The translations under genes and the position numbers were made by a program. Below are positions 33,351-36,250 of a DNA stretch of 64,000 nucleotides, piece by piece. How positions within the stretch are numbered: position 1 is the stretch's first letter; each line of letters starts with the position of its first letter. Under the pieces are notes generated by a model. That model had not been told where the DNA came from and ran no database searches. It was given only the letters and a program-made list of their open reading frames with translations. The DNA comes from Octopus vulgaris (taxonomy: Eukaryota). The DNA lies in the NCBI GenBank assembly GCA_951406725.2, contig OX597832.1, forward strand, positions 18,290,001-18,354,000. Reading direction: 5' to 3'.

Positions 33351-35203
33351 GTCTTGATTGCGTGGCCGGTTTGATTATGAACTTCCAGGTAGACTGACTT
33401 ATGTGTCGATCGGGGGTCTGTGTTAAACGATGCATCAGTATGGTGCTGGAGAGTGAACTCATCAGGACCAGGTTGTCTAATGAGGCTCGTGTCGGCCCAG
33501 GATGGAAACGCAGCTTGCAAAAATATCCTATATGAAGCAGCAGTGGGATTGCGCCTGTGAATAGTCGTTGACTTTCAGCCTGTTTAATGTACGCATAATT
33601 AATATTCATTTGAATTAGGTAATTAAACTGAAGCACCTTGCCATTTCGGTATCGTCCACACAGCTCCAATTTAGGAGAGTAACAAGTATCTACGTGTGTT
33701 ACGGCCGTAATACTTGATAATATTTCTACGAATTTCAGTAATACCTCATATGACGTCACTATAAATGTTAATGATAGAGTAAGTAATGCTAATTATAATA
33801 TCTCCAGTTGTAATTGTAGAGAAGGATCCCGATGTCAGTTATTCGGTCAGTGTTTAGCTGAAAATGTCATATATAAATGTACAGTAAAGACAGATAGTAA
33901 ACATTTCTGTGAATACGAAAAAAAAAATCGATTGAATAAGCATTTTTTGTCATTGGTACCTCTTTAGCTATGATAATCTTGGGACTCAAGGATAGTAATA
34001 GTGAATATAGCCTAAAATGGGACATCTTGGGTAGAGCTCTGCTATACACAAATAACCGATATGGATGTGAAATATGTTGTATGTAGATATATGAAATATT
34101 CATATATAGAGTATCACGTGTCCATAGGATTACCCGTACCTTCAAATACTTTAGAAACAAGTAATGATAAGTATATCATGCTATGATACGGGGAGTCATA
34201 TTATTCATAGCATATCCTCTATTTTCTCGAAATATATGTAATATTGTTTTCTAATGAACCTTTATTACATTAATCTGCAATCTTTCAATAATTATATTAC
34301 ATATTTAGCCGTTCTGTATTATATTACATATTAAGCCGTTCCATTATAGTTTGTACAATATATAAAATTGCAACGAATTACGAAATCTTCCCCCTCTCCT
34401 ATGTATAAGGTATAGCTCCCAGTAACTGTTATTGCCCTACATAGATCAGTGTCCTTGATATATTTTGGAATTATTTTATAAACCCTTTTCCAAAGGTATC
34501 TTTATCTTAATTTATTATTTTTTTCAATTAGTATTTGATATATATGATCTAATTTTTAATAGGGTATTATATTAATAATATATCTAAGAACACTTTCCAT
34601 ATACAAATATAATTTATAATTTATATCATAATCTATGAAATAATTCTTATTTCATTTTATTTTATCTTGATATATTCTTATGTTTTTTTTTTATTTCTGC
34701 TATACCATTTATATCATTCGGAAACAAATATATAAAATTTTATGTTCTATATATTTTATATTTTATATTATTAAATTTTTATATCTCTACACCTTCCTAT
34801 ACATTTGTGTAGCTTCTATTAATTAAAAAGATTTTTATAATTTCTTTTCATAATACAATATTATAATGTGAACCAAATTATTCTAATTTATAATTACACA
34901 TTATGCCTTATAAATTGTATACATATATGTGATATTTGTATGCATTTATATATCCTTTCATATTTTTTCCAAGTATTTGTAATTTATAAATTATTTTTAC
35001 AAGGTTTTCTTATAAAAGTTATTGGATATGGAAATCCTTGGTTATTCTTGTATATTTTTTAAGCATGCATTATACTTTAAATGTTTACATGTTCAAATCG
35101 GTTTAGCTATTCGCTTCAATAATTTATATTTATGTTCAGTCTTCGGAGTTTTTCAAAGGTAAGTAGTTCTGTGTTGCACACAGTCCACATGTTCCCGGTA
35201 TGA

Positions 35204-35271
<68 letters not shown>

Positions 35272-35280
<9 letters not shown>

Positions 35281-35851
35281 TAAGGGTAGAAATCAATATT
35301 TATCAATTAAAACCAGTGGTCTAGCATATTAAAAAAGAATCCGAAGATTAAAATATTTATATATAACAATTAAGGACTGAACACCAAAAGTGGACAGTCA
35401 ACATGCTAGATATAGACGTCAAATCGCCATTCTCCACAAAAGATTATGTTCTCAAATCAAACTCATCACAAACCCAAGCAATAAACAAGTGAAAATATAC
35501 GAAATAAAATACTTATCCATGTACTGATCAGTTTCGGCTATTATTATCCGCAAGGATACCTGTAGCCTTCATCAGCATGGCCCGATATAAATGCAATTTG
35601 CTGGACTAGATGCAAAAACGATACCGGAGTATCGCGTGCGTGGAGTTCAACCTATTACATTCGAATGTATCTTTCAAATGCCTTTACTTTGGCGCGTTGA
35701 GACCCGAAAAAACCAGCCTGCAGCTAATAATTAGCAGCCGTCAATTTATCGGTTAGAGAACATATTTATTTATATAAAATTAATCAAGGGTAGAAATCAA
35801 TATTTATCAATTAAAACCAGTGGTCTAGCATATTAAAAAAGAATCCGAAGA
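35272..35851 (-). mobile_element. Retrozyme/Penelope-like non-coding element: 504-bp monomer plus ~76-bp terminal redundancy
   Basis: Direct repeats 35272-35347 and 35776-35851 (about 2 differences); internal HHR on the minus strand; left end abuts (TA)n; no ORF. Confidence 0.8.
35517..35580 (-). ncRNA. Type I hammerhead ribozyme (minimal, Penelope/retrozyme type)
   Basis: Minus strand: CCATG-CTGATGA-A-GGCTA-[CAGG-TATCC-TTGC-GGATA-ATAA]-TAGCC-GAAA-C-TGATCA-G-TA-CATGG. Perfect stem I (CCATG/CATGG), intact CUGAUGA and GAAA, stem II GGCTA/TAGCC, short stem III with palindromic CTGATCAG, GUA cleavage triplet. Confidence 0.9.
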
Positions 35852-36038
35852 ATAACCAAGGATTTCCATATCCAATAACTTTTATAAGAACACCTTGTAA
35901 AAATATATACATATGCATATAGGTAGATAGATTGATAGATAAGATGATAGATAGATTCGTAGATAGATATGTAAATAGAAATACAAACAGATGGATAATT
36001 ATACAGATAGACAGACAGATAGATTTAGATATGAAATA

Positions 36039-36250
36039 CAGGGTGCGGCAGAAGTAACGCCCTTTTGTATTTTACTTTCTTAGATATTAGTTGTTTTGTA
36101 TTTCCTAAAGCTTCTGCAATTTTTTCACTAGTTTATTATTCGTTTCTTTAAGTAATGCAATAAATTTGTGTTCAATAATAAATTACTTAAACATCTATAT
36201 GCTATAAAAGTTGTCAAATGCAAATAGGGGATCAATTGTGCCGCACCCTG
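36039..36250. mobile_element. Tc1/mariner-type MITE (212 bp)
   Basis: TIRs CAGGGTGCGGCA / TGCCGCACCCTG flanked by TA on both sides (36037-38, 36251-52). Confidence 0.88.

Follow-up and report, generated by a model that had tools for sequence, protein, structure and literature searches.

The locus raises the question of what a 504-bp unit with a hammerhead ribozyme and no protein is doing beside a TA microsatellite in the octopus genome: is it the stranded end of a larger Penelope-like element (PLE), or a mobile element in its own right, and how did it move? The movement of animal retrozymes is still argued from co-occurrence and repeat phylogeny, and local satellite growth has been offered as a route to tandem copies (bioRxiv 10.64898/2026.07.22.740005). 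Here, the insertion scars themselves carry a Penelope signature. We give a probability of about 85% to the reading that the locus belongs to a young and dispersed family of tandem repeats that encode no protein and carry a hammerhead in every unit, likely non-autonomous PLEs (non-LTR retrozymes) that are inserted into TA microsatellites by a borrowed reverse transcriptase-endonuclease.

All positions below refer to the window, the whole 64,000-nucleotide stretch of DNA that was analysed. The window copy and its surroundings are laid out as follows.

35273 to 35776, minus strand: full 504-bp unit, monomer positions 1 to 504; position 504 lies at 35273 and is the 3' end, the presumed start of reverse transcription.
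35777 to 35851, minus strand: 5'-truncated remnant of the preceding tandem unit (monomer 430 to 504), the truncation point of the window copy.
35353 to 35365, minus strand: internal TATATA site (monomer 412 to 424), the first of two fixed 3' ends.
35273 to 35365, minus strand: tail of about 92 nt between the two fixed 3' ends, the commonest part of the window family.
35206 to 35272, no strand assigned: (AT)33.5 microsatellite, the insertion target at the element's 3' end.
35848 to 35905, minus strand: 58-bp inverted copy of the local flank, joined to the 5' end of the element via a short overlap (35848 to 35855).
34992 to 35049, plus strand: source of the captured 58 bp, within an old repeat.
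33683 to 35190, plus strand: decayed Hydra-clade PLE remnant, with a CxCx5C linker and endonuclease piece at about 33790 to 34155 and the old repeat beyond.

The first-pass annotation of this DNA described a segment of about 76 bp repeated 504 bp apart in a unit that has no ORF and adjoins (TA)n. Each of these observations was reproduced. The segments 35272-35347 and 35776-35851 are identical at 75 of 76 positions with a spacing of 504, the (AT)33.5 tract occupies 35206-35272, and no stop-to-stop frame of at least 70 aa occurs within 35273-35810, while one 86-aa frame (35811-36071) overlaps the far end of the copy. The repeated segment had been taken for a terminal redundancy, which it is not; in other copies the extra piece runs from less than 80 bp to several units, and here it marks the truncation point. 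The element had also been extended to 35903, and this boundary had to be moved, as 35848-35905 is an inverted copy of the flank (57 of 58 positions identical to 34992-35049) and not element sequence. The other copies of that old repeat (19 loci) match the captured segment at 46 of 58 positions or fewer, and we infer a template switch onto the target DNA.

The Hydra-clade remnant in the flank was considered as the element's own ORF and rejected: it lies on the opposite strand, is old (other copies are 66-83% alike) and stands beside 1 of the 96 family sites introduced below. A Pfam search returned 0 families for it. Near its end, AAG/GTAAGT at 35156-35166 is a perfect match to a 5' splice site; PLE terminal repeats can hold introns.

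The ribozyme itself was read directly from the minus strand.

35580 to 35517, minus strand: type I hammerhead, comprising a 5-bp stem I, CUGAUGA, an extra A, a two-tier stem II, GAAA, a 10-nt palindromic helix III and GUA.
35580 to 35576 paired with 35521 to 35517, minus strand: stem I.
35575 to 35569, minus strand: CUGAUGA.
35568, minus strand: extra A after CUGAUGA, absent from the first-pass annotation.
35567 to 35563 paired with 35540 to 35536, minus strand: outer stem II.
35558 to 35545, minus strand: inner stem II hairpin.
35535 to 35532, minus strand: GAAA.
35531 to 35524, minus strand: CTGATCAG helix III segment.

The claim of a complete type I hammerhead at this place is well supported, as all boxes were read in position and a generic type I descriptor found one site in the 64-kb window, at 35580-35517, and none in 300 locally Markov-randomised windows. 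Helix III is palindromic as first described; on rereading, its palindrome proved longer than CTGATCAG, at 10 nt (ACTGATCAGT). The GUA triplet predicts cleavage between 35522 and 35521 on the minus strand. A comparison with Rfam had been recommended, and it returned no match to the window hammerhead at the gathering threshold and eight weak matches, none of them a hammerhead. Canonical type I ribozymes have loop 1-loop 2 contacts, a 6-bp helix I and a 4-bp helix II, in contrast to the 5-bp helix I and two-tier helix II seen here. The window ribozyme instead matches the PLE variety (PMC4209133), with the core boxes, an NUH triplet, an extra base after A9 (9/10.1), a long helix II, a short helix I and a palindromic helix III. 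The G10.1-C11.1 pair is kept in the window copy, and 11 of 27 aligned rows are without a standard pair there, partly through alignment register.

A genome-wide search for the 504-bp unit, as the first-pass annotation had proposed, revealed a family with copies in TA microsatellites at hundreds of places, with 117 matches in the 2.8-Gb genome from only 38 of 1831 candidates scored. Two exact hammerhead patterns gave 84 and 109 hits and the controls 0; a subfamily with a 1-nt insertion escapes both patterns. Exact tail 24-mers number 680. Two samples were studied: 96 sites taken by similarity or hammerhead pattern, with 147 segments spanning the ribozyme, and 89 tail loci from the first 100 tail matches in genome order, 49 of which belong to the window family (median 278 bp) and 40 to a sister family, B. 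Units are 504-507 bp long with a GC content of 33%, subfamilies are 78-100% identical to the window copy, and arrays reach 5.5 units. Up to five consecutive hammerheads on one strand occur in arrays L138 and L221, and the window copy has one. No tRNA gene was found in the unit, and no promoter was identified there. Of the words sampled from the unit, a fraction of 0.43-0.86 is present in sequence runs under four organism labels, and the family is therefore common to close relatives. One identical two-armed insertion occurs twice 18 kb apart (L178 and L218, C18:16652373 and 16634202); the pair was counted as two sites and is probably a segmental duplication or an assembly duplicate.

Family B (L098:360-1116; L147-L176) has a tandem unit of about 545 bp that was ORF-less in the 30 loci examined and whose similarity to the window family is about 60% for the unit as a whole and 73-75% for its last 145 bp. 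It has a hammerhead motif of its own, with a palindromic helix III and a GUU site, and is older, with 86-92% identity between copies and 3872 candidates. Its end positions could be called only unreliably and do not enter the end counts given below. A tail variant that resembled a partner element was traced to this family and set aside, family B being ORF-less as well.

Conservation of the hammerhead stems across copies, on which the retrozyme proposal had been staked, is borne out by covariation. Among 30 distinct hammerheads chosen from 66, which are related sequences with three divergent rows out of register, 94.9% of cells are paired and 26 cells are changed on both sides, in 5 of 21 pairs, a result seen in 0 of 500 shuffles; in slid controls the paired cells drop to 27-40%. 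The compensatory changes fall in stems II and III and stem I is invariant, the clearest case being a G-C to A-U double change that preserves the helix III palindrome. Two other covariation measures were non-significant (176 and 153 of 500). Since most sites were picked by hammerhead pattern, conservation of the core is inflated.

Could the unit nevertheless be the pseudo-LTR of an autonomous PLE, its copies being truncated insertions with the ORF elsewhere? The PLE type of its hammerhead (PMC4209133) is in keeping with this, most copies are shorter than 300 bp and so too short to reveal an ORF, the family was scored in part, and the assembly may lack a master copy. However, beyond the unit end the long copies at the 96 sites run into a further unit and never into an ORF, arrays of at least two units (up to 5.5) cannot be ORF-flanking pLTRs, and the subfamilies, from 78 to 100% alike, are all ORF-less. 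A PLE ORF was joined to the element at 0 of the 96 sites and 0 of the 89 tail loci, a sample rather than a census in which short copies cannot show an ORF, and the plain solo pLTR that the first-pass annotation had weighed against its own proposal was thus not encountered. When two Hydra proteins were compared by tblastn with the loci of the 96 sites, only the window's own opposite-strand remnant (L001) and one unrelated piece in L132 matched; upstream of the 89 tail loci there was no match. We regard the pseudo-LTR reading as largely refuted and improbable.

The family codes for no protein, has no LTR structure and a GC content below 50%, and carries tandem type I hammerheads in at least two consecutive units. 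By the sequence-level definition, it is a new family of non-LTR retrozymes, and likely one of non-autonomous PLEs. Targeted literature searches on cephalopod retrozymes, hammerheads and non-autonomous Penelope elements listed no description of it, and an earlier listing may exist in Repbase, Dfam or the supplement of PMC7229834.

The insertion scars carry most of the information on how copies arise. A permutation of start points had been anticipated and does not hold: the 3' ends lie at two fixed places, monomer ~412-424 and 504, both running into (TA)n and coinciding with the only two TATATA runs in the unit, about 92 nt apart, and only the 5' ends vary freely among copies. Most insertions consist of two head-to-head inverted arms. 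Both outer ends lie at a fixed site in 53 of the 96 sites, and in 50 of these 53 there is one of each (p 2.8e-12); the remaining three have 504 twice, and none has 424 twice. The position-ordered tail sample gave one of each in 30 of 31 (p 6e-5 against 2/3; one locus is shared with the 96-site set). TA-rich DNA adjoins 69 of 76 ends at 504 and 48 of 70 at 424, the latter count being lowered by alignment overrun. A target-site duplication is indiscernible inside (TA)n.

The paired arms overlap in sequence and have correlated breakpoints, a median of 14 nt apart (p 0.0016), which cluster at monomer 300-340, the edge of a predicted long helix. No 5' breakpoint fell at the cleavage site in 36 binned arms, arms ending at the junction lying outside this histogram, and these arms therefore show no genomic trace of a cut linear template. 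As expected of a non-autonomous PLE, the family combines 5' truncation and a microsatellite target with three features by which PLE insertion is recognised in the literature (PMC8557442), namely partial tandems, a neighbouring inverted copy and a tail confined to one end. In vitro, the PLE tail is explained by a pair of internal start sites (PMC11167929). The suggestion of Penelope-like reverse transcription is supported: fixed internal 3' ends in (TA)n, 5' truncation and inverted arms are typical of it.

Two rivals to a PLE enzyme bear on these scars. The mobiliser could be an enzyme from outside the PLEs, for instance of the LINE type, with TA repeats as its target, and LINEs too produce 5' inversions; the unit, moreover, matches no PLE end examined. 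Against such an enzyme, the published PLE pattern (PMC8557442; PMC11167929) likewise has two internal start sites, a different one for each strand, together with inverted arms that overlap and units in tandem, the genome's own PLEs show the same pattern, and the 3' ends displayed neither poly(A) nor a tail in common with LINEs. It therefore seems very unlikely as the mobiliser. The second rival dispenses with retrotransposition, a stranded PLE end being amplified locally as a minisatellite by unequal crossing-over, a route set out in Li et al. 2026. Units are indeed more alike within arrays than between them (in the youngest arrays, 0-2 substitutions within an array and 2-6 between loci). However, the sites are spread over about 30 contigs, each occupies a new (TA)n tract, where its arms are inverted and the same pair of priming ends delimits it, and near-identical arrays, 2-6 substitutions apart, occur on different chromosomes. 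Local amplification is an equally slim prospect.

If the family is indeed moved by a borrowed PLE enzyme, the genome offers two candidates, both of which lie in (TA)n with long open frames and copies about 99% identical. Young Hydra-clade PLEs (L119-L128) have frames of 903-1091 aa with long Asn-rich inserts, and their hammerheads have an inserted stem II of 57-60 nt, an 8-nt palindromic helix III and GUA. A young Neptune-clade PLE (L342-L351, for example G000:C16:20836700-20840200) keeps its 781-aa frame open in at least 20 of the 150 hits listed, with a median ORF identity of 99.1%, and a U3-A8 variant hammerhead. Two-armed insertions of these PLEs have mixed ends in 4 of 5 cases (Hydra) and 2 of 2 (Neptune). 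A Hydra-clade partner seems about twice as likely as a Neptune-clade one because of ribozyme shape and tail length (about 116-127 nt in Hydra, 92 nt in the unit and 38 nt in Neptune). Mollusca are among the hosts of the Hydra clade, and octopus Hydra elements were not met in the accessible part of Craig et al. 2021 (PMC8557442).

No 3' end common to the unit and an autonomous PLE was found over 110 PLE loci by Hydra endonuclease and GIY-YIG searches, BLAST and a profile, these loci being a small share of the 13431 Hydra and 6136 GIY-YIG candidates. A profile of the window family and family B matched only inserted copies at these loci, the weakest hit (E 0.0016) being unexplained. Pfam returned 0 families for the two Hydra proteins.

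Assembled contigs and predicted folds bear on the RNA form of the unit. The runs listed for it included none recorded as RNA. Contigs in 4 of 4 presumed RNA runs (run type guessed) cover all 30 monomer bins and cross the cleavage site; their depth is left aside, as it cannot rank the parts of the unit. These are compatible with circles, uncut tandem RNA or DNA alike, and the junction of a circle and that of a tandem have identical sequence. One contig (run X5, record 16, on L018:1806-1830) has 10 of 13 A read as G over the hammerhead core and cleavage site, with no other change across the hammerhead; it is a single contig of depth 3.5 from another individual, compared by eye. This hyper-changed form is absent from the assembly and suggests transcription on the hammerhead strand together with editing, perhaps of fold-back loci. 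Edited RNA was rejected as an insertion template, as private A>G changes number 24 per 137 A columns against 33 T>C per 188 T columns. A spliced form was also rejected: there was no joint with splice ends, and the one 62-nt skip has AT..TC ends.

The predicted circular folds of cleavage-to-cleavage monomers lie well below shuffled sequences (z -4.7 to -7.9; three tested, 25 shuffles each), with a predicted self-pairing of 63-66%. Antisense folds are also far below shuffles (z -3.4 to -6.0), and the fold score therefore neither picks a strand nor proves a circle. In 4 of 4 subfamilies, a latched monomer, closed by pairing between the palindrome and the CUGAU core, is predicted to be 2.0-5.9 kcal/mol below the active fold. 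The predicted helix III self-duplex (-8.6 to -13.6) would allow two copies to form a 10-bp helix III. The youngest subfamily (L137, L138, L180-L188) has one extra G at the centre of the helix III palindrome, and its predicted gap between latched and active monomer is narrowed to 2 kcal/mol.

Based on these observations, we propose the following course of events. Arrays would be transcribed on the hammerhead strand, and the hammerhead of a monomer would be latched shut by the predicted pairing of its palindrome with the CUGAU core. Pairing of two copies via the 10-nt palindrome could open the hammerhead, so that tandem RNA would be cut to monomers of about 505 nt, which may be ligated into circles. 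A PLE protein, probably a dimer, would then open a (TA)n tract by a nick in each strand, and each of the resulting 3' ends would prime at a different one of the two UAUAUA sites inside the unit. Synthesis would usually stall at monomer ~300-340, at the predicted long-helix edge, and the cDNAs would join head to head; longer runs would pass the unit junction and yield tandem units, the template being either a circle or tandem RNA that was never cut. The window copy would be a single arm of 1.15 units whose end switched to flanking DNA and captured 58 bp.

Whether the template is a circle or an uncut linear tandem RNA stands at about even odds. A full account without circles keeps the same element and PLE enzyme, copies uncut linear tandem RNA, lets arrays grow by insertion at the TATATA of earlier copies, and takes the hammerhead to be inherited from the parent PLE and to cut rarely or with the help of protein; we place it slightly short of an even chance. 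One observation in its favour comes from array L221 (G000:C10:65693452-65696547), a mosaic of 5.3 units whose alleles at a single polymorphic site common to them read G A A A A G. The first-made unit of each arm shares one allele and the four inner units another, and the mosaic is therefore unexplained by repeated passes round one circle. The lack of breakpoints at the cleavage site and the predicted latched fold of the monomer also fit, uncut RNA accounts as well as circles for contigs that cross the cleavage site, and the Anolis PLE inserts without needing cleavage and nicks its own pLTR (PMC11167929). Set against this are the compensatory changes between subfamilies, which show that the fold of the ribozyme is under selection in a lineage without an ORF, and several arrays that are uniform but for private changes (L024, L137, L180 and the plus arm of L138). 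Related mussel and axolotl repeats, in addition, do give circles (PMC7229834).

A further account, which we consider less likely than not, is that of a still-active cephalopod retrozyme. A PLE dimer would copy circular RNA and prime both (TA)n strands at the two UAUAUA sites by base pairing, one each, the palindrome latch would stop the circle from cutting itself, and host A-to-I hyper-editing of fold-back transcripts would destroy the ribozyme core. If true, it would provide direct genomic evidence for target-primed rolling synthesis on circular RNA.

The window family is not a new kind of element, and its value is as a test system. The youngest subfamily is less than 1% divergent and two candidate enzymes are present in the same genome, so that the copier, the RNA form and the start sites can be tested in vitro. 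The rule of one site per strand, seen in about 80 insertions, sharpens the PLE 'tail at one end only' into a constraint on enzyme geometry.

Animal retrozymes are already a published class (PMC7229834), their origin from PLEs has been published as well (bioRxiv 10.64898/2026.07.22.740005), and the giant squid was reported to hold 235 Rfam hammerheads, with no family described in the accessible part of that report (PMC6962438). The window family resembles metazoan non-LTR retrozymes (PMC7229834; Li, Clavereau & Pollet 2026, bioRxiv 10.64898/2026.07.22.740005) in tandem units that code for no protein and each bear a type I hammerhead, a GC content below 50%, the absence of LTR features, a self-paired predicted monomer and coexisting PLEs. 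Its unit length of 504-507 bp is above the 150-450 bp of the former study and inside the 51-972 bp of the latter. It differs in its PLE-type hammerhead, theirs being canonical, and in strict (TA)n targeting with two fixed priming sites, which the accessible parts of these two sources do not describe. Under the rule of Li and colleagues, the window copy alone, with one hammerhead, is a 'monomer' and not 'active'; in the same work, eight of nine Xenopus retrozyme dimers were without cleavage in vitro.

Among PLEs, the Hydra clade (PMC8557442) resembles the window family in targeting (TA)n, in a hammerhead placed close to the 3' end and in a tail confined to one end. The Hydra families of this genome share the long inserted stem II, palindromic helix III and GUA, and family B copy L098 has their ACAATTGT palindrome. 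In contrast to Hydra-clade PLEs, the unit is without an ORF and its tail is about 92 nt long, and it has no sequence similarity to 40 Hydra and 20 old-repeat loci. The Neptune-clade 781-aa family is likewise very young, with (TA)n targets and two 3' ends used one each, whereas its hammerhead is the compact U3-A8 form, its tail is shorter, and it has no sequence similarity to the unit. Non-autonomous Chlamys PLEs such as MRC1 (PMC8557442) are also non-coding, multicopy in head-to-tail arrangement and inserted into microsatellites, whereas they come from green algae, share 3' sequence with a partner and mostly lack hammerheads. A parallel in start-site usage is the Poseidon element of Anolis, PAc (Frangieh et al. 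2024, PMC11167929), in which two internal start sites also define the tail and both target strands are cut and extended. The start sites of PAc are non-homologous to the target and showed no strand difference in vitro, whereas here both are UAUAUA and could base-pair with the target, and 50 of 53 insertions have a different site on each strand.
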